The position numbers and the translations under genes are program-made. From an uncultured Clostridia bacterium (GTDB lineage Bacteria > Bacillota > Clostridia > Christensenellales > CAG-917), in the NCBI GenBank assembly GCA_947382865.1, contig CANDBF010000003.1:1-63529 (forward strand): 63,529 nt of DNA. Reading direction: 5' to 3'. Every line of letters begins with the position of its first letter. Position 1 is the first letter of the stretch. Below the pieces are notes generated by a model that ran no database searches, was not told the DNA's origin, and was given only the letters and a program-made list of their open reading frames with translations. Positions 2,618 to 63,529 of the stretch are shown here, piece after piece.

Positions 2618-3937
2618 TTACTTACCTACGCAGAACTTCGAGAAAATGGAATCGATAATGCTTTCCGTCGCGGTTTTGCCGGTAATGCTCCCGAGTGCGT
2701 CGTACGCCTCGCGCAAATCTATAAGCAAACAGTCGACGGGACTGTCCGCATTTGCGATAGCGTTTTCGACGGCGCGCTTCGCCTCGTACAGAGCGGAGAT
2801 ATGTCTCTCCTCGGTCAGTACCTCGCCGCCCGTCAGCCCGTTTTCCTTGTACATCGCGGCAATAGCCCCGACAAGCGTATCTACGCCCTCGCCCGTCTTC
2901 GCGCTTATTCCAAATGTGTACGCCATACGCGGAATCGCAAAGCCGCCTATGTCGCACTTGTTGTATACTGTGAAAACCAATTTTTCTCCGAAATCCAAAT
3001 CTCCGCGCACCCTTGCGCTTTTGTCTATCACGTGCAGAACGATATCCGCGTTTGCAATCGCCCTTTTCGCCCTTTCTACACCTTGCGCTTCTATAACATC
3101 TCCGCTCTCGCGCAAGCCTGCCGTATCCACAAGATTTATGCGCACGCCGTTATATTCCATACTGCCCTCGACGGTATCGCGCGTAGTGCCCGCGATATCC
3201 GCGACAATGGCGCGCTCGTCGCCGAGCATCGCGTTCATAAGCGAGGATTTGCCCGCGTTTACGTCGCCCGCCAGAACTACGTTGAGTCCGTGCTTTGCAA
3301 TCCTGCCCTCCGAAGCGGTCAGTAGCAGCTGGTCTATCTCGTTAAGACTGCTTTGCATACTCTCTTTCAAGGACGGCAAGACCTCGTCCTCCGTCTCCTC
3401 GGGATAATCGAGAGTAGCTTCCAGCCCCGCAATCAGGTCTTCGAGGGAGTCGGATATTTTGTTTACCGCTTTTGCAACGCCGCCCGTCATAAGCCTGTAC
3501 GCAGCGCGCAAGCCCGCCGCGCTGTCGGCGTTTATCATATTGATAACTCCCTCCGCGTCCGCAAGCGACAGCCTGCCCGCAAGAAAGGCGCGCTTCGTAA
3601 ACTCGCCGTGCTCCGCAAGCGAAGCTCCCGCTTTGAGCAGCGCGCCGAGCGCGCCCTGCATAATACGCACGCCTCCGTGCAGATAAAACTCCACAGTGTC
3701 CTCGCCCGTATACGCCTTTGCCGCGGGAAAATAGACGGCGTAGCCGTTATCCTTGAAGTCCTGCGCACTAAACGTGCCGTAATTCATCATCAACGGCTGC
3801 CATCTGTTCTGCGCGCCGCTTTTGCCGCCGAAATGAAAAACGGTATCGGCTATACCGAGCGCTCCGTCTCCGGAAACGCGCACTATGCCGATACCCCCTG
3901 CGCCGATAGGTGACGATATTGCCGCTATCGTTTTCAT
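2618..3937 (-). CDS. mnmE: tRNA modification GTPase MnmE (TrmE)
   Basis: 439-aa ORF with G-domain motifs GDVNAGKSSL, DTAG and NKCD, and the C-terminal FCVGK (CxGK) signature. Confidence 0.95.
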   Translation of the reverse strand: MKTIAAISSPIGAGGIGIVRVSGDGALGIADTVFHFGGKSGAQNRWQPLMMNYGTFSAQDFKDNGYAVYFPAAKAYTGEDTVEFYLHGGVRIMQGALGALLKAGASLAEHGEFTKRAFLAGRLSLADAEGVINMINADSAAGLRAAYRLMTGGVAKAVNKISDSLEDLIAGLEATLDYPEETEDEVLPSLKESMQSSLNEIDQLLLTASEGRIAKHGLNVVLAGDVNAGKSSLMNAMLGDERAIVADIAGTTRDTVEGSMEYNGVRINLVDTAGLRESGDVIEAQGVERAKRAIANADIVLHVIDKSARVRGDLDFGEKLVFTVYNKCDIGGFAIPRMAYTFGISAKTGEGVDTLVGAIAAMYKENGLTGGEVLTEERHISALYEAKRAVENAIANADSPVDCLLIDLREAYDALGSITGKTATESIIDSIFSKFCVGK

Positions 3938-4827
3938 CAGAATCTCTTTTTGCCTCCGAAGCTCTTGAATTTCGGCGGTCCGGATTGAGAAGCGGGCTTC
4001 ACGAAATCGTCCTGCTCCGTGAAATATCCGAGATAAACGTTGCCGTCCTCGACCTCGGGCTCATCCTCGCGCGGTCTACGCTCGGCTCTGCCGCCGTCTC
4101 TGCGCCGTCTGTCCTCGCGCCTGCCTCCGTCTCGCCTGTCGTTTCTTCTGTCGCCGCGGCGCCTGTCTTCCCTGCCTCCGCGTTCTCTTTCGCCGCTCTT
4201 TATGGGACGCTCGTCTTTAAGCTCCACTCCGACGGGGATAATGACGATATGTCTCATAGCGTCCTCTCCCTCGCTCACGGTCTGAGCAACCGTTCCGTCC
4301 GCAAGCGCGCTGTGTATAACCCGCCTCTCGAACGGATTCATAGGTTCGAGCTCGATTTTACGTCTAAGTCTGACCGCCTTCTCGGCAAGTCTCAACGCGA
4401 GCGCGGTCAGCGCTTCCTTGCGCTTTTCGCGATAATTCTCGCAATCTACGACCACCTTTTTCAGCTCCGCCTTATGCTCGTTGAGGAAAGTCATCGAAAG
4501 ATATTGAAGAGCGTCCAGCGTTTCGCCGCGATAGCCTATTGCGACCGCGCTGTCCTCTCCCGTAATCCTTACGACAATCACGTCGTTTTCCTCGGTCACT
4601 TGCGCACGGGATTTCAATCCCATACGTTCCAGCACACCGTTTATAAACGCGTCCATCTTTTCCGCCGCGTCGTCCCTGACCGTAACGCGCACTTCCGCCT
4701 TGGAGAACAGCCCGCCATCGGAGAGCACCTCTACGTCGACTTTATCTCTGGAAACGCCCAGCTGTTCGAGCGCCTGTTCGACGGCAAGCTCCACACTGCC
4801 CGCCTGAATTTCAATACTTTTATCCAT
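3937..4827 (-). CDS. jag: Jag/KhpB-type RNA-binding protein (Jag_N, KH, R3H) with Arg-rich C-terminal tail
   Basis: 296-aa ORF between yidC and mnmE. R3H-like segment PFERRVIHSAL. Its stop overlaps the mnmE start. Confidence 0.85.
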   Translation of the reverse strand: MDKSIEIQAGSVELAVEQALEQLGVSRDKVDVEVLSDGGLFSKAEVRVTVRDDAAEKMDAFINGVLERMGLKSRAQVTEENDVIVVRITGEDSAVAIGYRGETLDALQYLSMTFLNEHKAELKKVVVDCENYREKRKEALTALALRLAEKAVRLRRKIELEPMNPFERRVIHSALADGTVAQTVSEGEDAMRHIVIIPVGVELKDERPIKSGERERGGREDRRRGDRRNDRRDGGRREDRRRRDGGRAERRPREDEPEVEDGNVYLGYFTEQDDFVKPASQSGPPKFKSFGGKKRF

Positions 4828-8663: not shown

Positions 8664-8700
8664 TGAATGTCCTCTTTGTATTGGTGTTGGTTGTATTGGC

Positions 8701-9029
8701 GACGTGCTCTATAAAATGGATACGTCGGGTACTCTAAAATCCCCCTTCCTCAGGTGTTCCCCCTATTGCGGTCTCTCACTTGGGATTCCCAAGCGAGCCT
8801 CTCCGCAAGCCTTCGGCGGGTGAACACAACGCGATTGGACTTTCAGTCAACAATCGCTATTCCGTCGCTACGCTCCTTACGGCGCTCGCATATACAAGCA
8901 TAGATCTCTGTTTATATCACTCGCTCACATGCAGAAAACGAAATTGCCTGTTCGCTTGTACAGAGCGTCAAGCTCGGCACTCGGGTTGGCGCGCGCCCTG
9001 CACGCGCCGGTACAGTCTCTTGAACAGCG
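8701..9029 (-). ncRNA. copy A of an unclassified ~330-400 nt structured repeat element (central-domain version 1, 5' module missing)
   Basis: About 8 mismatches by eye to copy B over ~175 nt. Shares conserved hairpins. A G.U wobble fits only the minus strand. No conserved ORF. Confidence 0.5.
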
Positions 9030-9258
9030 ATTTGCCGAAATCATGTTCGCGCAAACTGATTTTTTATCCGCTCGCTCACAAAGTGAGCAAAACTATATTT
9101 ACGCAAAAAGTGGAAATTTCTTTCACTTTTTGCCCCTTATGCGACGAAGCACGGTGAGCTTGCGGAGTGCGTGGAGTAGCGTTTGCGCTCACAGCACACG
9201 CGACAACTACAAACTAAAACAATCAATATAAACTTTCAGTTTTGTTGTCGCTGTGCGT

Positions 9259-11573: not shown

Positions 11574-13472
11574 TTAATTTCCGCTATATCCCCATACGAC
11601 CGTCGCGTCGCAGCCGCTAAGCCAATCCTCGTCCCAACCTTCGGGTTGAGCGTCGCTCTTACAGCTTATCGTCTGCAACTCAACGCAGAGCGTAAACACT
11701 GCGTTGCCGACCTCCGTCAGACTTGCGGGCAGAATCGCGCCGTTCAAATCCGTACACGCAAAAAACGCCTGCGAACCGAGTCTTAAAACTCCGTTGGGAA
11801 GAGAAATCGACGTAAGTCCGCTGTGCGCGAAAGCGTGTAGACCTATCGTCAACACGCCGCTCGGTATGTTTATTTCCGTCAAAGATTTGCAGTTATAAAA
11901 GGCGAGCTCGCCTATTTCCTCTATACCCGTCGGCAGACTTACCTCGCTGAGATTTTCGCAGTTCTGGAACATATGCGAGAGATTGAGCGAGGTCACGGTA
12001 TTGGGGATTTGTATGCTTAAAAGCCCCGTGCACCCAGAAAAGGTGTCCGAGCCTATCGTCGTGACGTTTGCGGGTATCGTCACGCCTTGTAAAGTCGCGC
12101 AGTCCTTAAATACGCCGTTGCCGAGAGTAGCAACACCCGCGCCGAGCTTGACGTTGTTCAAAGCCGTACAGCCCTCGAATGCGAAGTTTCCGATAGCCGT
12201 TACGCTGTCGGGAACCGTGACGGCGGTCAGACTCTCGCAGCCCGCAAACGCATAATCCGCTATACCCTTTATTCCCTCTCTCAGAGTCAGGCTCGTCATA
12301 CCTTTACAGCCCGCAAACGCGGAATTGCCGAGCGTATTTATTCCGCCGCCTACGTCCACGCTCTTCAAGCCCGCGCAGCCGTAAAACGCCTCTACGCCAA
12401 GCCCCGTAACGGTTGCGGGTATTGCGATAGAGCGCAATCTCGCGCACCCCGAAAACGCCCTGTATCCTATCTGAGTAAGACCGCTCGGCAGGTTTATCCT
12501 TTCAAGCTGAGAGCAACCGTAAAACGCATATCTGTCTATACTCTCTACGTTGGCGGGAAGCGTAACGCTCATAAGCCCGTCGCACCCGTAGAATGCCTCC
12601 GCGACAATTTTGGAGCCGCCCGTAATTTCCAGCTCCATAAGGCTGTCGGGAACCCATTGGGAATTCATCAATCCGTTTTCCGCTCCGAAAATATAACCTA
12701 AATACGCGTGATTTTCGCCGTCCTTCGTTTCGCCGACAAACGGGATTTTCATTCGGACTACTCTGTTGCAGGCGGTGAAAGCGAGTCCGCTTATCCTTGT
12801 AACGTAGTCGGGAACTATTATGGTCTCGACGGATTTATCCTTGACGCCCGTGATTACGCAGGTCGTTTCCGTCGCGGTAAACTCGAAATTTTCCATTTCC
12901 TGCTTGACGGGCATATCGGCGTCAACGCGCTCGATTTTGTTCTCCACAACCTTTCCGTCCACGTTCCAGCCTCTGAAATCGTAGCCAATCCGGTTTATAG
13001 GCGCAGGAACGGGAAACGCCGTATGCGAAAGCACCGTTTCGGTCTGCACCAGCTCGTCTGCCGCAAAGTAATTCACCGTCGCGTAAAAATTGCGCCATAT
13101 GTCGAGCGTATATCTGTTGCTTATCGCCCCGTCCTCGGTGCTTACGAGGAGATAATATCTGTTGTGACCCTCTTTAAGCGCGTCCGTGCGATTGTTCTGC
13201 ATGACTATCTGACACGCGACGTCCCTGTACAGCGCCCACCTGCAACCGGCGGATACCGAAACCCGATACGCGCCCTCGCCTATGCTCACTGTTTCCACGT
13301 CGGGAGCGACGTCGAGCGCAACGGTCTTCCCTTGGATAGTCGCGCCGTCAAACTGCTTTAATAAAGCCGTATTATCGTTCGTATATTCTTCGCCCTTGTT
13401 GCACGCCGCGAGCGACACCGCCGCAGCAAGCACAACTATCAAACAAATAAAACCAAAAACTTTCTTTTTCAT
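11574..13472 (-). CDS. leucine-rich repeat (BspA/LRR_5-type) surface lipoprotein
   Basis: 632-aa ORF with signal peptide plus lipobox (LAAC). Many ~23-aa repeats of the form ..IP..VT.IG..AF.GC..L. Confidence 0.8.
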   Translation of the reverse strand: MKKKVFGFICLIVVLAAAVSLAACNKGEEYTNDNTALLKQFDGATIQGKTVALDVAPDVETVSIGEGAYRVSVSAGCRWALYRDVACQIVMQNNRTDALKEGHNRYYLLVSTEDGAISNRYTLDIWRNFYATVNYFAADELVQTETVLSHTAFPVPAPINRIGYDFRGWNVDGKVVENKIERVDADMPVKQEMENFEFTATETTCVITGVKDKSVETIIVPDYVTRISGLAFTACNRVVRMKIPFVGETKDGENHAYLGYIFGAENGLMNSQWVPDSLMELEITGGSKIVAEAFYGCDGLMSVTLPANVESIDRYAFYGCSQLERINLPSGLTQIGYRAFSGCARLRSIAIPATVTGLGVEAFYGCAGLKSVDVGGGINTLGNSAFAGCKGMTSLTLREGIKGIADYAFAGCESLTAVTVPDSVTAIGNFAFEGCTALNNVKLGAGVATLGNGVFKDCATLQGVTIPANVTTIGSDTFSGCTGLLSIQIPNTVTSLNLSHMFQNCENLSEVSLPTGIEEIGELAFYNCKSLTEINIPSGVLTIGLHAFAHSGLTSISLPNGVLRLGSQAFFACTDLNGAILPASLTEVGNAVFTLCVELQTISCKSDAQPEGWDEDWLSGCDATVVWGYSGN

Positions 13473-16641: not shown

Positions 16642-16923
16642 TAGCCATAGCGGCTTCTCTAAACCTTATTATGCCTACGCTAGTTTGCTCACAATGTCAC
16701 GACACGTCCGAGCATAATCAATACAAATATTACAGCTCATAAAGCTATAAATTCGATGGCTGGATTTTCGGCAATAATACTTTTATGTTTTATCCAACTT
16801 AAACTGCGGCATTGCGATTTAAGTATACGGCGTAAAAATAAACAAATCTTATATGGCAACTACACATTCTTGAATTCGACAAGGCAAACGATTGCGCCCC
16901 CGTTGGGGAATGACATGAATTAT

Positions 16924-17027
16924 ATTCGCCATACCCATTCGCCATACCCATTCGCCATACCCATTCGCCATACCCATTCGCCATACCCGTTCGCCATACA
17001 TATTCGTCATGCCTATTTGTCACACAT
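16924..17027. repeat. 13-bp tandem direct repeat ATTCGCCATACCC (5 exact units, then about 3 decaying units)
   Basis: Read directly. Exact units start at 16924, 16937, 16950, 16963 and 16976, followed by GTTCGCCATACAT, ATTCGTCATGCCT and ATTTGTCACACAT. Confidence 0.9.
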
Positions 17028-17066
17028 AATGTTTATGCAAAGCAAATATAATATAAATCAACAGAT

Positions 17067-31835: not shown

Positions 31836-31959
31836 TGCGAAGCGTCCACTTCGGAAGAAGTGTCGAAGCGCAAAACGCGCGGCAAAAATTGCCGCAGGGG
31901 GTTCGAGAATATATAAAGAAAAGCACGACAGTTGTCGTGCTTGCTTGGCGCCTGTTGAG
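31836..31959. repeat. direct repeat copy 2: the last 14 nt of tRNA-Asn plus its terminator and downstream sequence
   Basis: 124 bp matching 32061-32184 with 2 mismatches by eye. Confidence 0.9.
31911..31942 (-). terminator. duplicated copy of the tRNA-Asn terminator hairpin
   Basis: AAGCACGACA, 2-nt loop, TGTCGTGCTT followed by a U-rich tail on the minus strand. Confidence 0.5.
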
Positions 31960-32060: not shown

Positions 32061-32184
32061 TGCGAAGCGTCCACTTCGGAAGAAGTGTCGAAGCGCAAAG
32101 CGCGCGGCAAAAATTGCCGCAGGGGGTTCGGGAATATATAAAGAAAAGCACGACAGTTGTCGTGCTTGCTTGGCGCCTGTTGAG
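32061..32184. repeat. direct repeat copy 1, overlapping the tRNA-Asn 3' end
   Basis: See the partner at 31836-31959. The period is 225 bp. Confidence 0.9.
32134..32167 (-). terminator. intrinsic terminator after tRNA-Asn
   Basis: A 10-bp stem, AAGCACGACA paired with TGTCGTGCTT, plus a U-rich tail. Confidence 0.65.
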
Positions 32185-32246
32185 GGACTCGGACCCCCGA
32201 CACTTCGGTTAACAGCCGAATGCTCTACCGACTGAGCTAAACAGGC
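32171..32246 (-). tRNA. tRNA-Asn (anticodon GTT), CCA encoded
   Basis: Minus strand reads GCCTGTTTAGCTCAGTCGGTAGAGCATTCGGCTGTTAACCGAAGTGTCGGGGGTCCGAGTCCCTCAACAGGCGCCA. Folded by hand it gives a cloverleaf with a 7-bp acceptor stem and anticodon loop CTGTTAA. Confidence 0.93.
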
Positions 32247-54497: not shown

Positions 54498-55697
54498 TTA
54501 TTTTATCAGCAAATCGCCCTCTGAAAGCGCGATAGGGCAGTCGAAGCTGTAAACGTGCTGTACCAGCTTTGCGTCGTCGGTAATTTCACCGTCGGGTTCG
54601 TGCGCGATATTCCCCATAACAAACGACTTGCCGTTCGCATCGTCGGGAGAGAGAACTGTGAGAGTATCGCCGCTCTTAAAGCGGTTGCGCATTTCCGCCG
54701 TCGCCCGACCGTTTTCATACCTCAAAACGCTTGCGGTAAAGCGGTATTTTTCCTGCGTGCGTTCTTTTTCAAGCGATATCGTATGCGTGTTCTCGCCGTC
54801 GAGATACGCTTCCGTATACGCGCGGTGGGACACGGTTTCGAGAAGGGCATTGTAGCTATCCGCGTTTTTGATTTCTCCGAACGCTAGATATTCGTTGATA
54901 GCGCGGCGATACGCCGTCGCGACGGTTGCGACGTAGTACTCGCTTTTCATGCGGCCCTCAACCTTCAAGGAGCATATGCCTGCCTTTGCGAGCTCGGGTA
55001 TGCGAGGCAGAAGCCGCAAATCGCAGCTGTTCATAAAATAAGTGCCGCGCCCGTCCTGTTCCACGTCGACGGCGACGTCGCGCTCGACCTCGGTGAGTCT
55101 GTATTGCCAGCGGCAGGGCTGAACGCATTCGCCGCGATTGGAGCTCCTTTCCGAGAAGTAGGAGGAGAGCAGGCATCTGCCGCTGTAGCTTACGCACATT
55201 GCGCCGTGAACGAAGGCTTCGAGCTCCATATCGGGAACGGCGTCGTGTATTTTGCGGATATCGTCAAGCCCCAGCTCGCGGGACAGCACGACGCGCTTCG
55301 CGCCCATAGATTGCCAGAATTTCACCGCTAGCGCGTTTGTCGTGTTGGCTTGGGTGGAGATATGAACGGTGAGAGAGGGTGCTTTTTCGCGGCAGAGAGC
55401 AAGCAGCCCTACGTCGGAAATCAGCACCGCGTCCGCTCCTGCGTTTTGGAGAAAAACAAAAAAATCCGCCGCTTCGTCGAGGTCGGAATTTCTTGCGAAG
55501 ATATTTGCGGTCACGTACACCTTTTTGCCGAGAGCGTGCGCGTAGGATATGCCGTCGGCAAGCTCCTCGCGGCTGAAATTGTCCGCAAACGCGCGCAAAG
55601 AGAAGTTTTTGCCGCCTGCATATACTGCGTCCGCCCCGAATTTCAGGGCGGTGCGTAGTTTTTTCAGATTGCCTGCGGGCATAAGGAGTTCCAACAT
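54498..55697 (-). CDS. peptidase U32 family protein
   Basis: 399 aa from MLELLMPAGN. U32 signature EAFVHGAMCVSYSGRCLLS. The upstream part of the track ORF overlaps the PRT gene out of frame. Confidence 0.9.
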   Translation of the reverse strand: MLELLMPAGNLKKLRTALKFGADAVYAGGKNFSLRAFADNFSREELADGISYAHALGKKVYVTANIFARNSDLDEAADFFVFLQNAGADAVLISDVGLLALCREKAPSLTVHISTQANTTNALAVKFWQSMGAKRVVLSRELGLDDIRKIHDAVPDMELEAFVHGAMCVSYSGRCLLSSYFSERSSNRGECVQPCRWQYRLTEVERDVAVDVEQDGRGTYFMNSCDLRLLPRIPELAKAGICSLKVEGRMKSEYYVATVATAYRRAINEYLAFGEIKNADSYNALLETVSHRAYTEAYLDGENTHTISLEKERTQEKYRFTASVLRYENGRATAEMRNRFKSGDTLTVLSPDDANGKSFVMGNIAHEPDGEITDDAKLVQHVYSFDCPIALSEGDLLIK

Positions 55698-55717
55698 ATT
55701 TGCTCCGAAATCAAGTC

Positions 55718-56260
55718 TTATTGCGGGAGAATGGGAATTGACGCGAGATATTTCACGTCCGTGCGCGCCGCGGCGTCGCCCTCTGCGAGCACAAAGGCTT
55801 TGTCTACGATAATGCCGCCCGCAAGCCGCACGATATCCTCTATGCCTTTGAGGCTTCCGCCCGTGGATACGACGTCGTCTACTATCGCCACGCGCCTGCC
55901 GCGCAGCAAATCCGCGTCGTGCTTGCTTAGATACAGAGTCTGGATTTCGCCCGTCGTGATGGACTGAACGCTTGTGTGCAAGCCGTCCTGCATATACAGC
56001 TTTTTGGACTTGCGGCATACGGCGTAGTAGTCTTGTCCCAGCTCCCTCGCCACGACGTGCGCCAGCTGTAAGCCTTTTGATTCCGCCGTTATGATAATAT
56101 CGCAGGGGCTCAGGCGTTTTGCGATTGCCTTTCCGCAGTGCTCCGTGAGAGCTTGATTGCCGTGCAGATTGAAGAAGCAGATGCTTATGCCCGACGGCAA
56201 CGGCAGTATGGGAAGCTCGGCTTTTGCGCCGCATATATCAAGCGTATAAAATTTATCCAT
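55718..56260 (-). CDS. phosphoribosyltransferase family protein (purine PRT-like)
   Basis: 180 aa from MDKFYTL. PRPP-binding motif VAIVDDVVSTGGS. Confidence 0.8.
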   Translation of the reverse strand: MDKFYTLDICGAKAELPILPLPSGISICFFNLHGNQALTEHCGKAIAKRLSPCDIIITAESKGLQLAHVVARELGQDYYAVCRKSKKLYMQDGLHTSVQSITTGEIQTLYLSKHDADLLRGRRVAIVDDVVSTGGSLKGIEDIVRLAGGIIVDKAFVLAEGDAAARTDVKYLASIPILPQ

Positions 56261-56384
56261 AGTATCACCCGAAAATAGTTTTACGACGGATATATTATAA
56301 AATAAATAATTAGAATTTTCAACCGACTTTGTAAGTGATTTATAAGTATATTTTTGAACGTAGATTATATAGATTTTGAACGTT

Positions 56385-56788
56385 CGCCTTATCAAGCTGA
56401 GGGGACGTGCTCTACAAAGGTGCACGGCGGGTATTTTAATTAAATTTCCCCCTTCCTCAGGTGTTCCCCCTATTGCGGTCTCTCACTTGGCGTTCCCAAG
56501 TGAGCCTCTCCGCAAGCCTTCGGTGGGGGAACACAACGCGATTGGACTTTCAGTCAACAATCGCTATTCCGTCGCTACGCTCCTTACGGCACTCGCATAT
56601 ACAAGCATAGAGCACTGTTTATGCCACTCGTTAGGGAGCGAATAAACAGGACTCGCTCCCTCACTTGTACAGAGCGTCAAGCTCGGCACTCGGGTTGGCG
56701 CGCGCCCTGCACGCGCCGGTGCAGTCTCTTGAACGGCGACTCGTCGTGCTCACACCCGTTCAAGCAGAGAGCAAGCGCTTTGGTGCGC
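56385..56788 (-). ncRNA. copy B of the structured repeat element (full length, central-domain version 1)
   Basis: Matches copy A (version-1 domain) and copy C (5' modules). Lies between the XRE gene and the PRT gene on the same strand. Confidence 0.5.
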
Positions 56789-56895
56789 AAGATTGTTCCC
56801 AGAGCGGAGACTCGTGATTAGACAAAGATTGTGCACTCGATACTCGGGTTTGTGTGTTTAGTTTTTTTGATTTATAAGATATTCGCAAAGCAATT

Positions 56896-57108
56896 CTAAA
56901 ATCCGAATAAGTCGTTGGGAGTTATATCAAACAAGCGACACAGCATATCGATTTTATAGTAATCAAGTTCCATTCTTTCGGTTTCATATCGGCTGTATAC
57001 GGTTTGTTTTGTATTCATTATTTCCGCAACCTGTTGTTGCGACATGCCTTTTGCTTCTCGTGCCGCTCTAAGATTTTTGCTTACTATACTTTTCATATTT
57101 TTTTCCAT
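56896..57108 (-). CDS. XRE-family helix-turn-helix transcriptional regulator
   Basis: 70-aa ORF with the HTH_3 pattern LRAAREAKGMSQQQVAEIMNTKQTVYSRYE. AGGTGA Shine-Dalgarno. Confidence 0.85.
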   Translation of the reverse strand: MEKNMKSIVSKNLRAAREAKGMSQQQVAEIMNTKQTVYSRYETERMELDYYKIDMLCRLFDITPNDLFGF

Positions 57109-57153
57109 AGTTTCACCTGCATAGAAATTTTATATGATAGTACTAAAAAAGTA

Positions 57154-57182
57154 TTGATATAGAACTAGTTTGGTACTATGAT
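57154..57182 (+). promoter_or_regulatory. candidate promoter for the 109-aa ORF in the divergent spacer
   Basis: TTGATA, 17 nt, TATGAT. The spacer also holds inverted ATAGTAC/GTACTAT half-sites, possibly an operator. Confidence 0.45.
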
Positions 57183-57206
57183 ATTTGTGGAAAAAGGAGA
57201 ATAATT

Positions 57207-57536
57207 ATGAGTAAGGTTAAAGAATGTTGGAATTGTAGATATTATAGGGCGTTTTACACTAAGGGTTTTAGTCGGTTTAATAAGCAAAAAATTGGAATTT
57301 GTAATGTTGAAAATCGAATTATTGGAGATAAGCATATTTCCTGTGACAAATGGTGTAATGGTTTTGAGATTAAAAATATCAGGCAGGTAGCTGCAATCAA
57401 AAGAATAGACGAAACTACGGATTGCCTTATACAAATCAAACAAATTTTGATTGAGGAAAAAGAAGAGTTACAAGACATAAAAGTGATAGAACTTCCAAGT
57501 ATAAATAAAAAAATAAAAAAGTATCTATCAGATTGA
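57207..57536 (+). CDS. Cys-rich 109-aa hypothetical protein (putative zinc ribbon plus helical tail)
   Basis: Strong Shine-Dalgarno (AAAGGAGAA, 7 nt spacing). Cys pattern CWNC...C...C..WC. Divergent from the XRE gene. Confidence 0.7.
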   Translation: MSKVKECWNCRYYRAFYTKGFSRFNKQKIGICNVENRIIGDKHISCDKWCNGFEIKNIRQVAAIKRIDETTDCLIQIKQILIEEKEELQDIKVIELPSINKKIKKYLSD

Positions 57537-57547
57537 GTAACGATTAT

Positions 57548-57905
57548 GCGCACTTAACGCGCTTGCACTCGGCTTGATAAGGTGTGAGCACGACGAGCCG
57601 CTGTTCAAGAGACTGCACCACAGCGCGTGCAGGGCGCGCGCCAACCTGAGTGCCGAGCTTGACGCTCTGTACAAGTGAGGGAGCGAGTCCTGTTTATTCG
57701 CTCCCGAACGAGTGATATAAACAGAGCTCTATGCTCGTATATGCGAGTGCCGAGTTCCCCTCCCGTGAGCAACGTATAGTATAAGCAGAAAGCGTTCCTA
57801 TTCCGAGCGGGAGGGGAAAGCCCGTAGGGAAGGGGTGGGTTATCTAATTAAAATAAACAACGTACACCCTTTATAGACCGCGTTACACCTCAGCTTTATA
57901 AGGTG
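57548..57905 (+). ncRNA. copy C of the structured repeat element (full length, central-domain version 2)
   Basis: The 5' ~190 nt nearly match the reverse complement of copy B. The version-2 domain is identical to copy D over the last 46 nt of the window. Confidence 0.5.
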
Positions 57906-57946
57906 CAAAATATAAAGTATTTTAGTTCTGTCACAAACCCAAATAT

Positions 57947-57973
57947 AAAAGCCTCGGATTTTCCGAGGCTTTT
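57947..57973. terminator. bidirectional intrinsic terminator
   Basis: AAAAGCCTCGG, loop, CCGAGGCTTTT. Confidence 0.85.
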
Positions 57974-57994
57974 ATATTGTTCTCAACTTAAATT

Positions 57995-58129
57995 TTACTT
58001 GCAGTCGGAGCAGTTGCACTCTTTTACAGGCTTCGTCGATTTGGACTTTGAAGAAGTCTTGGTTTCGTTGCAATGACAATCGCTTGTCGGTTTTTTGCTC
58101 TGCTTGCTCGTCGTTGTTGATTTTGCCAT
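57995..58129 (-). CDS. 44-aa Lys/Ser/Thr-rich, Cys-containing small protein (not in the ORF track)
   Basis: Hand translation gives MAKSTTTSKQSKKPTSDCHCNETKTSSKSKSTKPVKECNCSDCK. AAGGAG lies 8 nt upstream and the terminator follows directly. Confidence 0.6.
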   Translation of the reverse strand: MAKSTTTSKQSKKPTSDCHCNETKTSSKSKSTKPVKECNCSDCK

Positions 58130-58197
58130 GATTTCACTCCTTTTAAGGCTTCCGCCTTTTGATATTAGTATGGCTTAGGGGCGCGCTTTCTATACCG

Positions 58198-58225
58198 TTG
58201 CATAAAAATTTTTTCGTGCTATAAT
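58198..58225 (+). promoter_or_regulatory. sigma-A type promoter upstream of ung
   Basis: TTGCAT, 16 nt, (TGC)TATAAT extended -10. Confidence 0.55.
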
Positions 58226-58249
58226 GTGCATATACGAAAGAGGTGCAAT

Positions 58250-58912
58250 ATGGTCAATATCGGCAACGATTGGGACGAGCTTCTCAAAGAGGATTTCGAG
58301 AGCGAAAGCTATAAGCAGCTGCGAGTGTTCCTCGCAAACGAGTACCGTACGCGCTCGGTTTATCCGGATATGCACGACATTTTCAACGCGCTCAAATGTA
58401 CGCCGTACGCGGCGGTCAAGGTCGTGATACTTGGACAGGACCCATATCACGGAAGAGGTCAGGCGCACGGCATGTGCTTTTCCGTCAAGCGCGGAGTTCC
58501 CGCGCCGCCGTCGCTTGTGAATATTTTTAAGGAGATAGAGGACGACGTAGGCGTTCACAACGAGTCTCCCTATCTCGTTCCTTGGGCGGAGCAGGGCGTG
58601 CTGCTTCTCAACACCGCTCTCACCGTCAGAGAGGGACAGCCCAATTCGCACAGGGACAAGGGGTGGGAGGTGCTCACCGACAGCATAATAAGGAAGCTCA
58701 ACGACAGGAAAGAGCCCATCGTATTTATGCTGTGGGGAGGCAACGCGCGCTCCAAAAAGGCGTTGATAAAAGCTCCGCAGCATCTGATACTGGAATGCCC
58801 GCACCCCTCTCCGCTCAGCGCTTATTCGGGATTTTTCGGGTGCAGACACTTTTCCAAATGTAATGCTTTTTTGACGAAAAACGGAGTTAAACCCATAAAT
58901 TGGCAAACTTAA
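58250..58912 (+). CDS. ung: uracil-DNA glycosylase (family 1)
   Basis: Motifs VVILGQDPYH and HPSPLSA. Start set at MVNIGNDW after GAAAGAGGTG. Confidence 0.93.
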   Translation: MVNIGNDWDELLKEDFESESYKQLRVFLANEYRTRSVYPDMHDIFNALKCTPYAAVKVVILGQDPYHGRGQAHGMCFSVKRGVPAPPSLVNIFKEIEDDVGVHNESPYLVPWAEQGVLLLNTALTVREGQPNSHRDKGWEVLTDSIIRKLNDRKEPIVFMLWGGNARSKKALIKAPQHLILECPHPSPLSAYSGFFGCRHFSKCNAFLTKNGVKPINWQT

Positions 58913-58964
58913 ACTGCCTTTAGTGTAAAATAGGCGGTGATTTATGCCGTCGGGAGATATAGTT

Positions 58965-59159
58965 ATGAACGTGGAGAGAATAAACGAACTGGCAAGAAAA
59001 TCAAAGACCGTCGGTCTCACCGCCGAGGAAAAAGAAGAGCAGGCGAGATTGAGGCGGGAGTATATAGACAGCGTTGTGGGCAATTTACGCTCTCAGCTCG
59101 ATAACGCGTACGTCGTAGACGATAACGGCAACGAAACCAAGCTCGAAAAGAAAAAATAA
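58965..59159 (+). CDS. UPF0291/DUF896 (YnzC-like) small protein
   Basis: 64 aa: MNVERINELARKSKTVGLTAEEKEEQARLRREYI..., the typical DUF896 pattern. Confidence 0.75.
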   Translation: MNVERINELARKSKTVGLTAEEKEEQARLRREYIDSVVGNLRSQLDNAYVVDDNGNETKLEKKK

Positions 59160-59255
59160 ATATAATTGTCAAAGCCGACGGTTATCCGTCGGCTTTGCAA
59201 TTAGTTCGGTTTTTGAACAATGATTTTATAGGACTTAAAAATCCTCAATTTAGAC

Positions 59256-59435
59256 TTACAGGTCGTCCGCGTCCTGTACGGGAAGCTCTCCGTCGGGAGT
59301 TTCCGGCCATCCCTGATGCTCGGGAGTGCCGGTCCAGCTTCCGTTGGGGTCGAAGTGCGATCGCATGGTTTCGTGCTCCGTCATATTGCTGTGAGACAGC
59401 GGGACGTCGTGTTTTCTCTTCTTTCTGAATTTCAT
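59256..59435 (-). CDS. 59-aa hypothetical small protein (not in the ORF track)
   Basis: Hand translation gives MKFRKKRKHDVPLSHSNMTEHETMRSHFDPNGSWTGTPEHQGWPETPDGELPVQDADDL. AAAGGAG lies 7 nt upstream. Confidence 0.55.
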   Translation of the reverse strand: MKFRKKRKHDVPLSHSNMTEHETMRSHFDPNGSWTGTPEHQGWPETPDGELPVQDADDL

Positions 59436-59602
59436 AATAACTCCTTTTTTTATCGGGTTGGGCTTAGTATGCGCGGATTTTTGGATTTTCTTTATTTAAT
59501 AAAGAAAGATTTAGAAATTAAATTGCATAAAGAATAGAAAAACGGACGAGTGTATGATAAAATGCTAATATAACAGTTATTTTGCTTGCTTACGAGGTAT
59601 TT

Positions 59603-60184
59603 ATGCACACGACGGATAAGAGAGTAATCAGGACTCAGAATGCCATTCGCAAGGCTTTCAACGAGCTCGTTCAGACAAAGGATATGACCGAGATTTCCGT
59701 AAGCGAGTTGACAAAAGCCGCAAAAATTACGCGTAGCACCTTTTATATGTATTACGATTCGGTTTCGGCGGTGCGCGACCAGATCGAAAACGAAATCATC
59801 GATTATATCGACGCGCTTATGAAAGGACAGGACTGGCTTGCGTGTATGGTCAACCCGTTCCCGTTGCTTGACGCAATAGGCAAGGAAATCATGAAGTACG
59901 ACGAGTATAACCGCTATATACTCAGCAGCAACAATTCCGGCAGACTGATGGATAAGGTCAATCAGAGGTTCGTTGCCGCGTTTATCGATTACGCGTGCGA
60001 AAACGAGCTGAAAATAGACGCCGCAAGAGCGAAATACGTCGCCGCGTTTATAGGCGCGGGCATAGGCGAGTGCTTCAAGATGTGGTTCAATCACAAGAGT
60101 TCGCTTACGCTCGAGGAGCTGTGCCGCCGCATTTCGGAAATTGTGACGAAAGGACTTATATTTCTTAAAGGCTTCAATAACTGA
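59603..60184 (+). CDS. TetR/AcrR family transcriptional regulator
   Basis: N-terminal HTH (IRKAFNELVQTKDMTEISVSELTKAAKITRSTFYMYY). Start set at MHTTDKR. Confidence 0.88.
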   Translation: MHTTDKRVIRTQNAIRKAFNELVQTKDMTEISVSELTKAAKITRSTFYMYYDSVSAVRDQIENEIIDYIDALMKGQDWLACMVNPFPLLDAIGKEIMKYDEYNRYILSSNNSGRLMDKVNQRFVAAFIDYACENELKIDAARAKYVAAFIGAGIGECFKMWFNHKSSLTLEELCRRISEIVTKGLIFLKGFNN

Positions 60185-60255
60185 GCGTTTATGACACGCC
60201 GCGGGGCGGGTGCGCATATAACGCTTTATCGGTAAGATATAAAGGCAGGTGAATT

Positions 60256-63174
60256 ATGCTCAGACTATGCGATATTGTGAAGGAATATCCCACGGCCACA
60301 ACCACCGTGCAGGCTTTGCGCGGCGTGTCCTTGTCGTTCAGGGAAAGCGAGTTCGTCGCAATTCTCGGTCCCAGCGGCTGCGGAAAGACAACGATGCTCA
60401 ATATCATCGGCGGTCTTGACAGATATACCAGCGGAGATCTGATAATAGGCGGAGTTTCCACCGTGTCCTTCGACGACCTGCATTGGGACGCGTACAGAAA
60501 CGCGACGATAGGTTTTGTATTTCAGAGCTACAATCTCATTCCCCATCTTACCGTGCTCGAAAACGTCGAGCTTGCGCTCAGGCTCAACGGCGAAAAGAAG
60601 AAGGTTCGCCGCGCAAAGGCTGTCGCGGCTCTCAACAGAGTGGGTATGGCGGCGGAAATAAACAAGCGTCCCAACCAGCTTTCGGGCGGACAGATGCAAC
60701 GCGTCGCTATTGCCCGCGCTATCGTGAACGACCCCAAAATCATTCTTGCAGACGAGCCTACGGGCGCGCTTGACAGCGAGCTTAGCGTGTCCGTCATGGA
60801 GATACTTCAGGAGATTTCGCAGAAGTGCCTAGTCATAATGGTTACGCACAACGCCGAGCTTGCCGCGCAGTACGCCACGCGTATATGCAGATTTAAGGAC
60901 GGACAGCTGGTGGAGGATACGAATCCCTACGACCCGCTTGCGGAGGAAGGGAAAACGGCGTACGCGGACTTAAACGTCGAGGACGACGGCATAGTGGAGA
61001 AGGACCCCGCGCAGGAGCTTGTCACTACGGATACAATTTCCGAAAGCAGCGAGGAAGCGGCAGACGGGACCGTCGCCGCGGAGAATAGCTCGGACGAAAC
61101 CGTAACCGACATAGAAATATCGGCGGAGGGAGAGCATTGTGTCGAGCCTGTGACGGCGGTCGATTTGGATGCTCTTATTACGAACGAAAGCGAGCACGGC
61201 TCGCATAAGAGTAAGCGTCTGCCCTCCAATCATAAGCGCAAAAAGCAGCTCAAAACAATAAGCGACGATTCCCGCCGCGTATTTGAAAAGCTCGGGCTTA
61301 ACGGCACCAACAGGAAGAGAAAGAAAATAGAAAAGAAGAACAAGACTTTCAAGCCTACGTCGATGAGCGTGGGAATGGCGTTCGGTCTGAGTCTGCGCAA
61401 TCTGATTTCCAAGAAGAGGAGGACCTTCCTCACCGCGTTTGCGGGAAGCATAGGCATAATAGGGCTCGGGCTTGTGCTGTCGATTTCCAACGGTTTCGAC
61501 GTGTTTGTCAAAAACATGCAGACGGAGATGCTTGCGGGAGTGCCGCTCGGCGTATACGAGTATAACGTGGAGGCGTCCGCGGTTATGGACGTTATGTCAT
61601 CGTTTGCAAAGCCGTCCAAAGACCCCGACGCTTATCCCGACGGGAATAAGATTACGGTCGATAAGGAAGGAAGCGGCGGCAGTTCGAGTATGGATGAAAT
61701 CCTCAATTCTTTCTTCAAGTCGGTTTCCAGAAACGATATTACGGAGGAATTCGACGAATATATGTCCCGTATGCCCGAGGAATACTATTCTGCGTACAGC
61801 GCCTATTACGGCGTACAGTATAACCTTATATCCGAAGCATTCGATTTGAACGGAACCAAGAGCTATAAGAACGTATCTCAGACGCCCGCTGCTTCGACGG
61901 TTATGACCATCGCAACCAGTATATTGGGCGAGAGCGGAATGCAGCCCGCAAGCTGGCAGGTGCTGATCGGCGGAGAGGAAAATATGCTTGCTGCGTACGA
62001 GCTTATCGGCGGAACGGGTCATTATCCGAAGAATAAAAACGAGCTGGTGCTTTGCGTAAACGAAAAAAACCAGATAGACGAGAGCCTGTTGGAGACGTTC
62101 GGCATAAATATGATAGTCGAAGAGAACGGCGAATATAAAGAGATTTCCGAGCTTACGACGGATTTCTTTATAGGCAAAAAGCTGAAACTTCTGCTTAACG
62201 ACGATTATTATTCGTTGGATGAAAGCACAGGCTGGTATACCGAACCCGGCAAGAGCAATAAGTCCGTACTCGAACCGCTTTACAATTCTGAAAAAGCGAT
62301 AGAGCTTGAAATCGTCGGCGTAATCCGTCCCAAACAGGGAGTGACGGCGGGCTACGTATCGAGCGCGATTTGCTATACTCCCGAGCTTGCGAGGTTCGTT
62401 GTGGACAATTCGTACGACAGCGAAATCGCCAAGTTCCAAAGAGAGCTTATTGCCCAAGACGTGGCGGCGGCAGGCGGCGAGCCCAACCAGTACAGGACGG
62501 CGTTCGGCGGATTTCAGAAAAAGGACGATAATTTCGCGTCGGGCTCCTCTATAATCGGCGTAACGAGCAAGACTCTCGGCTGGTCGAATTTTATTAAGAG
62601 GCTCGGAGTGACAAAGGCGCCCGTTTATATCAACGTTTATCCGCTTACGTACGACCAAAAAATCAATTCCGGCAAATATATCGCGGATTGGAATACCCGG
62701 TATAACGGAAACGTAGGCTACTTCGACGTGTCGGAGATGTTCATATACAATCTGAATATGATTATCGACCTCGTGTCAATAATGCTGATTGCGGTGGCTT
62801 CCATATCGCTCGTAGTGTCTACGGTTATGATAGGAGTGATTACGTCAAACTCCGTTATCGAACGTACGAGGGAAATAGGTATTCTGCGCAGCATTGGAGC
62901 GAGAAAGCGCGATATAAGAAACGTATTCATCGCCGAAACCTCGCTTATAGGTCTTGCTGGCGGACTTATCGGAATTGTGCTCACCTACATACTGTGTCCC
63001 ATAATCAGCGCGGTTATCGGCGCCGTGTCGGGCGTGCAGAGCTTGTTGCACTTCCATCCGCTCCACGCTTTTATTCTCGTCGTGCTCAGCCTTTTGCTTA
63101 CAATCGTGTCGGGTATACTGCCCGCGATTGGGGCGTCGAGGAAGAATGTTGTGGACGCTTTGCGCGTCGAGTAA
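60256..63174 (+). CDS. fused ABC transporter ATP-binding protein / FtsX-type permease (MacB-like)
   Basis: 972-aa ORF with N-terminal Walker [24 protein letters not shown] and [11 protein letters not shown]. The C-terminus has an FtsX-like 4-TM permease. Confidence 0.9.
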
Positions 63175-63204
63175 AAACCGCGCTATTTGGCGCATTGCAT
63201 TGTC

Positions 63205-63268
63205 AACGCCCATATTCCTCGCCGTCACGTACGTCAGTACGTTAGGCGGCTCGGAATATGGGCGTTTT
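63205..63268 (+). terminator. long hairpin terminator after the MacB-like gene
   Basis: A 14-bp perfect outer stem, AACGCCCATATTCC paired with GGAATATGGGCGTT, followed by TTTT. Confidence 0.6.
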
Positions 63269-63307
63269 CGCGCACTGCATCCCAATATCACGGTTTTTAC
63301 AGATTTT

Positions 63308-63529
63308 GGTTTGTAAGGTGTGAACACGACGAGTCGCCGTTCAAGATACTGCCGGCGTTCGCAGGGCGAACGCCCCGTGAGTGCCGAGCCGAGCTTCGCA
63401 GTACAAGGGAGCAAACGAGCTTTATTTATTTTCGTTTGCGACCGAGTGACATAGATAGAGTAATATGCCAATAGGCGAGCGCCGAGTTCCCCTCCCGTGA
63501 GCAACGTATAGTATAAGCAGAAAGCGTTC
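63308..63529 (+). ncRNA. copy D of the structured repeat element (cut by the window end, central-domain version 2)
   Basis: Same module order as copy C but with compensatory changes in two stems. Confidence 0.5.

Follow-up and report, generated by a model that had tools for sequence, protein, structure and literature searches.

The stretch of DNA analysed here, referred to as the window, comprises 63,529 nt of contig CANDBF010000003.1 (assembly GCA_947382865.1) from an uncultured Clostridia bacterium. It carries four homologous non-coding segments, A to D, of approximately 330–400 bases each, on which repeat finding, alignment, BLASTN and nhmmer all agree. Searched with a covariance model of the 5′ domain, the window gives these four matches and no others, with bit scores of 138–165. 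Pairwise identity is 86% for A and B (340 nt), 90% for B and C (214 nt) and 78% for C and D (225 nt); a 28-nt core string occurs three times in the window against zero expected. The segments belong to a new sequence family that is multicopy and patchy in its distribution; its multi-helix fold is conserved and specific to one strand, and as DNA it undergoes gain, loss and rearrangement. A first-pass annotation, made from the window alone, had placed four copies of a modular element at these positions, and these methods confirm both the copies and its view that reading frames are not conserved between them. No frame is common to the copies, antisense open reading frame (ORF) fragments shift frame from one copy to another and gene callers predict nothing there; a protein-coding reading was rejected on these grounds. 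A 41-nt partial match at 12131–12171, inside a leucine-rich-repeat gene, has no covariance-model match and is attributed to chance.

Copy A (8698–9059, minus strand) has the long, A/B-type central domain and a degenerate 5′ end, and does not carry the 3′ copy of M, a 17-nt motif considered below. It sits between the terminator of ychF and the start codon of argS (8663), 35 nt from the latter, and would fall in the argS leader. The ychF–argS spacing is identical in all nine contigs compared, thus there is no strain-level polymorphism at A. Copy B (56385–56769, minus strand) also has the A/B-type central domain and is bounded on both sides by M (56753–56769 and 56385–56401), with homology continuing to 56798. 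Immediately 5′ of B is a mini-X (56770–56825, minus strand) made of a degenerate piece of the element's 5′ end, a small hairpin TGCGCACCAAAGCGC and TTGCTC, which we read as an internally deleted copy that has retained both element ends. Copy C (57568–57905, plus strand) has the short, C-type central domain and M at 57568–57584 and 57889–57905; it begins around 30 nt after ORF109 and ends 40 nt ahead of a bidirectional terminator at approximately 57946–57975. Its start had been put at 57548. The copy is real, but its proper start is 57568, and the bases 57547–57568 form the separate small hairpin X of a truncated mini copy (mini-X 5′ of C, 57527–57567, plus strand), which consists of M-like CAGATTGAGTAACG, the hairpin TGCGCACTTAACGCGC and TTGCAC. 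Copy D (63306–63529, plus strand) is of the C-type and incomplete, the window ending within its central domain; every public contig with the ABC-transporter gene upstream of D likewise stops inside D. The feature before D, annotated as a terminator, does have a terminator-like base (AAAAACCGCG...CGCGGTTTTTA), but it is an imperfect palindrome of around 130 nt, the HP module (63171–63300, plus strand), which starts around the stop codon of the ABC-transporter gene and recurs upstream of copies elsewhere.

The collection of further copies, proposed in the first-pass annotation, was carried out and about 30 copies were assembled from related Christensenellales-like metagenome-assembled genomes (MAGs) and a more distant clade. 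The loci concerned, labelled L0xx, are stretches from other genomes or metagenomes. One pattern scan of the GTDB species genomes located copies in five uncultured Clostridia MAGs, with seven loci in CASQXY01, three in JAAVHW01, four in CAMWIB01 and one in CAJTQT01 (“Christensenella sp.”), and further loci were gathered through homologues of ribosomal protein L17 (rplQ). A first pattern scan of Joint Genome Institute (JGI) metagenomes gave no match; a second pattern returned 25 stretches, four of which are real by nhmmer. These four (L062, L070, L076 and L082, with five copies) constitute the more distant clade, L076 having two copies in tandem (L076a/b). Matches in Eubacteriales MAGs (L021, L032) and in high-GC sequences lie inside genes and were dismissed as chance. 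There was no match in IMG/VR viral contigs by pattern scan, nor in phages or plasmids by BLASTN of copy C, and a literature search by taxon, concept and sequence string found no description of the element. Many copies are located at contig ends, where assemblies break within the element.

The fold was obtained from RNAalifold on 18 copies, inspection by hand and formal pair counts; coordinates below are those of copy C on the plus strand. P1 is a short 5′ hairpin, UGAAC/GUUCA, replaced by UAUC/GAUA in L026. H1 (57623–57641) is a GC-rich hairpin, GCGCGUGC-AGG-GCGCGCGC, whose stem alternates among copies with GCGUUCGC/GCGAACGC and is GCCGC/GCGGC in the distant clade; the alternations among copies are C-G/U-A, G-C/U-A and U.G/C-G. 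Every hairpin quoted in the first-pass annotation was found in the copies. For H1 it had counted three base pairs changed on both sides; the hairpin and the changes are present, but two are double changes (C-G to U-A and G-C to U-A) and the third is single (U.G to C-G). The long-range helix J pairs UGaGUGCCG (57647–57655) with CGaGYGCCG about 90 nt downstream (CGaGUGCCG at 57744–57752 in copy C), the two GAGUGCCG motifs being the partners, and closes a multi-branch junction. Three branches arise from this junction, the rod-like H2 lying between a first and a second variable hairpin. The first variable hairpin is longer by 40–70 nt in L026, L031 and L024, with the insertions at hairpin tips. 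H2 (57670–57714) is built of UAC/GUG, GN/NC and a 7-bp stem with two 2×2 purine internal loops, and 8 of its 12 pairs have double changes. The U-rich loop of H2 may pair with AUAAACAG (57716–57723) as a pseudoknot, which has moderate support from the energies of loop and downstream strand taken from the same copy (−5.4 kcal/mol) or crossed between copies (−4.6 kcal/mol; permutation p 0.012).

The central domain (57755–57818) is closed by Pc, a C-run/G-run helix formed by UUCCCCUCCCG (57755–57765) and CGGGAGGGGAA (57808–57818). Pc is kept in 18 of 18 copies in at least five sequence versions, including UUCCCCUCCCG/CGGGAGGGGAA, UCUCCCCCGC/GUGG(U)GGGAGA, UCUUCCCCGC/GUGG(U)GGAAGA and UUCCCCUCUUC/GAAG(U)AGGGGAA; its inner pairs are 98.6% paired and include double changes. 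The 3′ region (57821–57884) contains a CCC-GUA-GGG hairpin, the G-run GGGGUGGG, an A/U-rich linker and the 3′ hairpin AACG...CGUU with the conserved loop ACACCCUUUAUAGA. The A/B- and C/D-type central domains had been described as two unrelated versions. They do differ in sequence, but both are closed by the C-run/G-run helix and followed by a G-run, and the distant copy L062 combines pieces of both. Each of four successive helices is followed by the motif (C/U)GAGUG, and GAGUGCCGAG is present twice. The distant clade retains GAGUGCCGAGC, GUACAAG, CGAGUG, GCGAGUGCCG, the C-run/G-run helix and the 3′ loop CACCCUUGUAGAG, with a different 5′ end and a different H1 stem. The junction strands GUACAAG, CGAGUG, AUAA and GCGAG are invariant between clades that are only about 65% identical overall. 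Two further pairings were discarded: a helix between the variable hairpin regions (57654–57670 with 57721–57737) is, by eye, absent from other copies, and pairing of M or the 5′ end with the loop of the 3′ hairpin is inconsistent from copy to copy.

Pair statistics were calculated for the 5′ domain in an alignment of 23 copies against 500 shuffles, the cells being pair positions per copy. The proportion of cells that are paired is 92.5%, compared to 83.6% in the shuffles. Changes on both sides are seen in 11 pairs and 69 cells, where 7.2 and 19.9 are expected; only 0–3 of the 500 shuffles reach the observed values. In controls with slid partners, pairing falls to 21–58%. G-U cells outnumber A-C cells by 99 to 17, and the antisense strand would pair in 80.8% of cells compared to 92.5% for the sense strand. 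This asymmetry fixes the strand and confirms the polarity proposed earlier; folding energy alone does not tell the strands apart. Judged from the larger alignment (18–23 copies from several genomes), H1, H2 and Pc hold their pairing through many double substitutions; this is the check which the first-pass annotation had asked for. The core of approximately 300 nt appears to be under selection to fold as RNA on the strand which that annotation had chosen.

At the Rfam gathering score the sole match in the whole window is tRNA-Asn. Searching 56300–58000 at E ≤ 10 gave nothing over B and touched C at its 3′ edge only, with terminator-type and other matches far below gathering; at E ≤ 1, six loci with diverse copies gave 0 matches. 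The families considered in Rfam 15 were ROOL, GOLLD, OLE, raiA, HEARO, IS605-orfB, group I and II introns, T-box and self-cleaving ribozymes. The earlier remark that the element could not be matched to a known RNA family therefore stands at both gathering and permissive thresholds. A riboswitch or cis-regulatory leader would hold a constant position before one class of gene; the genes that follow the element are either convergent or unrelated, and a terminator stands at the end of many copies.

The first-pass annotation had noted that the copies share the orientation of the gene upstream, and this holds in the main clade, where at least 15 of 18 informative copies directly follow a co-oriented gene. 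The elements contain no sigma-70-like promoter, and the gene after B has its strong promoter beyond the 3′ end of B. Some copies lie close against the start codon of the gene that follows; the G-run of L027 is located 12 nt before the AUG. It is plausible, from this arrangement, that the element is transcribed by read-through, as a 3′ untranslated region or as a leader.

The first-pass annotation did not see that the element behaves as a mobile mosaic repeat, with presence and absence, tandem arrays, deletion derivatives and terminal direct repeats. M is the terminal direct repeat (CTCGGCTTGATAAGGTG / CTCAGCTTTATAAGGTG) of single copies and the common junction of tandem units, and its sequence is the same at different loci and in different genomes. 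Locus L028 is syntenic with 54508–62870 of the window at 85% identity; it contains the equivalent of C and not B. At the site of B it has mini-X and a single M, and reads ...TTGCGCACCAAAGCGCTTGCACTCTGCTTGATAAAGGTG joined directly to AACGTTCAG, that is, the 5′ flank of B connected to the 3′ flank through one M. The site downstream of rplQ is filled in L026, L030 and L042–44, and has an ordinary short terminator in L045, L046, L048 and L050–52. In L042 two head-to-tail copies share one M; L043 and L044, with identical L17, have one chimeric copy, with a 5′ part that comes from copy 1 and a 3′ part from copy 2. Mini copies consist of around 50 nt of the 5′ end, a stem resembling the 3′ hairpin, and M. 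Mini-X precedes B and C and is also seen in L028 and L042, and L026 has two 103-nt minis in tandem ahead of a full copy. The HP module directly precedes copies after six different genes and is seen ahead of copies in L007, L017, L020, L025, L030 and L042, and a shorter HP relative follows copies in L030 and L042. These comparisons establish gain or loss at orthologous sites, head-to-tail arrays, mini copies with both termini and reshuffling by recombination.

We looked for terminal inverted repeats at the element ends and found none; there is also no copy-specific target-site duplication, the flanking M being the same everywhere. The element is small, non-coding, multicopy and polymorphic in insertion, as are classical miniature inverted-repeat transposable elements (MITEs), without their inverted repeats and variable duplication. 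A clear match to a known transposon end or MITE, the result which the first-pass annotation had said would overturn its reading, was not obtained.

We note that the spacer downstream of rplQ, which follows the ribosomal-protein/rpoA operon, is a hot spot that ranges from 138 nt to more than 1.4 kb. Its content varies even where the L17 protein is identical, and includes HP modules, elements, pairs of helix-turn-helix (HTH) genes and a TM2-domain gene. In L026 (6000–6400, minus strand) three HP modules follow rplQ, one of them split by two copies of a palindrome of about 35 nt, GGGGTCCCCACAAAACCTCCGCGTTTTATGGGGTAT. The L022 copy has a similar unit nested within its central domain (approximately 3930–4010, minus strand). 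The palindrome looks like a third, smaller family of nested repeats.

Taken together, the data describe non-autonomous, modular interspersed elements, a new family in Christensenellales-type gut Clostridia, whose core would be a structured RNA that binds a ligand or protein; we rate this description as about evenly balanced between right and wrong. Covariation, the G-U over A-C asymmetry and the Rfam negatives support the earlier reading of a candidate large structured RNA of fixed polarity outside the known families. Junction strands are invariant, whilst the helices drift by compensation; we therefore infer that more than the stability of hairpins is at stake and that there is a specific ligand, which could be a protein or a second RNA. 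Both termini are kept in the deletion derivatives and units are joined at M, which suggests cis-acting ends and possibly a circular or tandem intermediate. In the main clade the element would land just after a co-oriented gene or a terminator-like palindrome, with no promoter of its own. The fold might then be the scaffold bound by a protein encoded in trans, and this protein would maintain or propagate the element, the probable route being a circular or tandem intermediate that recombines at M; this more specific proposal is a tentative one, to which we give somewhat less than an even chance. Any effects on host mRNA ends would be secondary.

Several observations weigh against this account. 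The orientation rule fails in the distant clade, in which copies are divergent from or convergent with their neighbours. The B-less state of L028 could be a deletion between two M repeats and not an empty target, and the difference between L042 and L043/L044 is unequal homologous recombination, not transposition. Copies in JAAVHW and CAMWIB have no 3′ M. No gene for a transposase, nuclease, TnpB/IscB, IS110 recombinase, reverse transcriptase or integrase was found in the neighbourhoods of about 30 copies at about 25 loci. With regard to the fold, J is paired in 99.5% of cells and all of its variation is one-sided, from G-U to G-C; the alignment used gives weak support to the 3′ hairpin, and several 3′ helices have weak support or vary on one side only; in thermodynamic terms the two strands are about equal in their folding (z −3.1 and −2.9); and copies within one genome are kin by descent, so that the cell counts overstate the number of independent events.

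A bolder alternative takes the core for a hitherto undescribed kind of large functional RNA which brings about its own spread, either self-processing (a ribozyme) or as an RNA-guided or RNA-templated mobile unit. The M junction would be where tandem or read-through transcripts are cut or recognised; they would then form circles and insert again at M-like sites beside palindromic terminators. In bacteria the element would thus correspond to elements of the retrozyme or omega-RNA type, with a putative protein partner or none. We consider this proposal doubtful.

The rival that survives best is a host mRNA-end element similar to REP/BIME, BOX or ERIC, in which a co-transcribed fold protects the mRNA, punctuates operons or tunes translation, the spread being passive and the structure beneficial to the host. 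The position of main-clade copies directly after co-oriented genes and the association with a terminator-like palindrome are what it would predict, and many insertion sites are highly expressed operons (rplQ, argS, infC, rpoB, rpsL, carB). It also draws on the several copies that abut the next start codon, the G-run of L027 being at the position of a ribosome-binding site, and on BOX elements, which are likewise modular, structured and co-transcribed (PMC3049150). A strong hairpin would suffice for such a role, yet a multi-branch junction with invariant single-stranded motifs is kept across clades. Close relatives do without the element at the same sites, and the distant copies are antisense to their neighbours. 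On balance we think this explanation unlikely.

It is less likely still that the copies are guide-RNA scaffolds left without their enzyme genes and dependent in trans on a master copy elsewhere in the genome, namely the ORF-less omega RNA or reRNA of IS200/IS605 TnpB or of IscB/IsrB (HEARO-like), or the bridge (seek) RNA of IS110/IS1111. Size and complexity would suit IscB/IsrB omega RNAs as they are generally known, and a multicopy, mostly ORF-less element with asymmetric ends and no inverted terminal repeats, inserted in one orientation beside palindromic repeats, fits the pattern. M contains TTGAT, the target motif of ISDra2; we treat this as no more than a lead. Against the idea, permissive thresholds gave no HEARO, IS605-orfB or other Rfam match, and no gene for TnpB, IscB or a DEDD recombinase lies beside any copy. 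The sequences that flank the core (M, HP) are conserved, not variable, with no guide segment apparent, and the loops and junctions are invariant, not programmable.

We regard as improbable a family of trans-acting RNAs, such as a protein sponge or ribonucleoprotein component, spread by duplication and presenting four hairpin-plus-(C/U)GAGUG units per copy as repeated protein sites. The recurrence of (C/U)GAGUG after four successive helices, the doubled GAGUGCCGAG and the invariance of the single-stranded motifs suggested it. The elements have neither promoter nor terminator of their own, many copies are truncated or chimeric, presence in close relatives is patchy, and the two GAGUGCCG motifs appear to be paired to each other. 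Most improbable is a DNA-only structure (single-stranded DNA hairpins or protein-binding palindromes acting in replication-coupled or rolling-circle transposition, with no RNA). In its favour, both strands fold about equally well, DNA hairpins tolerate G-T pairs, and the element resembles one-ended or rolling-circle elements in its tandem arrays, in its terminal direct repeats and in having a 5′ end that is constant and a 3′ end that varies. Against it, conservation extends over the whole 300 nt, including the long-range helix and the junction strands and not the termini alone, the G-U over A-C asymmetry is typical of RNA and no HUH or Rep gene is linked.

We therefore return to non-autonomous interspersed elements with a ligand- or protein-binding RNA core. 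Intricately folded bacterial RNAs of around 300 nt or more are few: RNase P, tmRNA, OLE, GOLLD, ROOL, HEARO/omega RNA and the group I and II introns. Each, once understood, revealed new biology, HEARO being the guide RNA of IscB. The present element unites an RNA-type fold, with junction nucleotides invariant across clades, and, in gut Clostridia that are abundant but uncultured, a genomic behaviour like that of selfish repeats. Should the RNA act in propagating the element, an undescribed RNA–protein (or RNA-only) mobility mechanism would be at work; should it act for the host, it would be an unusually elaborate mRNA-end module. In practice the repeat breaks short-read assemblies of these genomes and makes variable hot spots, for example downstream of rplQ.

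The remaining features of the window concern its neighbouring genes and the replication-origin region. B and C enclose a divergent pair (56896–57536) of an XRE gene (70 aa) and ORF109; in the syntenic L028 (2096–2665) two unrelated small HTH genes occupy this place. ORF109 has a CxxC...C...C pattern, no Pfam match and a single homologue (51% identical) among 5.8 billion proteins. XRE-type gene pairs adjoin several copies independently of the element. A link between the element and the XRE/ORF109 cassette was rejected: the only homologue of ORF109 (L083) adjoins an XRE gene without the element, therefore the cassette is independent of it. The bidirectional intrinsic terminator AAAAGCCTCGGATTTTCCGAGGCTTTT (57946–57975) is common to the transcript through C and a convergent 44-aa lysine/cysteine-rich ORF (57995–58129, minus strand), and yields weak, spurious Rfam “leader” matches. 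Between 18161 and 30443 the window has an origin-region set of gyrB, gyrA, parA, parB, a recF-like ATPase (minus strand), dnaA (plus) and dnaN (minus); the opposite strands of dnaA and dnaN are unusual and suggest a local inversion. With rpmH-rnpA-yidC adjoining argS, the window covers the replication-origin region. Seven tandem copies of a 13-nt unit, ATTCGCCATACCC, are located at 16911–17038 in a stretch of 34% GC, around 1.1 kb upstream of gyrB and within the zone of about 17–32 kb where the GC skew changes sign. They may be an origin-associated repeat (of the DNA-unwinding-element or DnaA-trio kind) or a variable-number tandem repeat. A direct repeat of 124 nt (31836–31959 and 32061–32184; 98% identity) has one copy that starts in the last 12 nt or so of tRNA-Asn (32171–32246, minus strand); the second is 225 nt downstream, terminator included. 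This looks like an attL/attR remnant of an element once integrated at the 3′ end of the tRNA.

Comparison with known systems begins with BOX of Streptococcus pneumoniae (and RUP/SPRITE), elements that are multicopy, intergenic, modular, non-autonomous, co-transcribed, patchy and predicted to have RNA structure (PMC3049150, PMC3184786). Our element is likewise multicopy, intergenic, modular, non-autonomous, structured and patchy among close relatives, and its co-transcription is predicted. BOX is composed of boxA-boxB(n)-boxC modules forming simple long hairpins, whereas our element keeps, across clades, a multi-branch junction whose unpaired motifs are invariant; the two are not similar in sequence, they belong to hosts of different orders and the termini here are direct repeats. 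In the Bacillus cereus group the bcr repeats include bcr1 and group B members such as the 310-bp bcr5, copies of which flank a small gene cluster on both sides (PMC3184786). They too are Firmicutes interspersed repeats (150–400 bp) in which compensatory changes keep structure at the RNA level, and B and C flank the XRE/ORF109 pair as bcr5 copies flank their cluster. They differ in that bcr1 has 5-bp target duplications and a two-stem-loop cruciform and bcr5 is linked to resolvase and transposase genes; our element has neither a variable duplication nor a linked recombinase. REP, BIME and REPIN arrays resemble it as mosaics of different modules in intergenic positions after genes, and the HP palindrome of about 130 nt is REPIN-like. 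REPs, however, are 20–40-bp palindromes mobilised by RAYT, and the 300-nt core of our element is asymmetric and has more structure than a hairpin. The bridge (seek) RNAs of IS110/IS1111 are structured RNAs in the non-coding end of elements that have no inverted repeats, form a circle and insert in one orientation into repeated palindromes. They are approximately 150–200 nt long with two programmable internal loops and are always accompanied by a DEDD recombinase gene, whereas the H2 and junction loops of our element do not vary, there is no recombinase nearby and its flanking repeat measures 17 nt as opposed to a 2-nt core. The HEARO/IscB-IsrB omega RNAs and TnpB reRNAs, of 200–300 nt, are intricate and in some cases ORF-less and multicopy, have no inverted terminal repeats and insert in one orientation. 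Our element is also large, intricately folded, multicopy, ORF-less and free of inverted terminal repeats; it differs in having no Rfam match, no adjacent IscB or TnpB gene in any locus and no variable guide segment, its flanks being conserved M, HP or X, or unrelated DNA beyond M. Like BOX and bcr, it is multicopy, intergenic and modular with structure kept by compensatory changes. Its behaviour is thus closest to these structured interspersed repeats of Firmicutes, and the complexity of its RNA is closest to that of the HEARO/omega RNAs.

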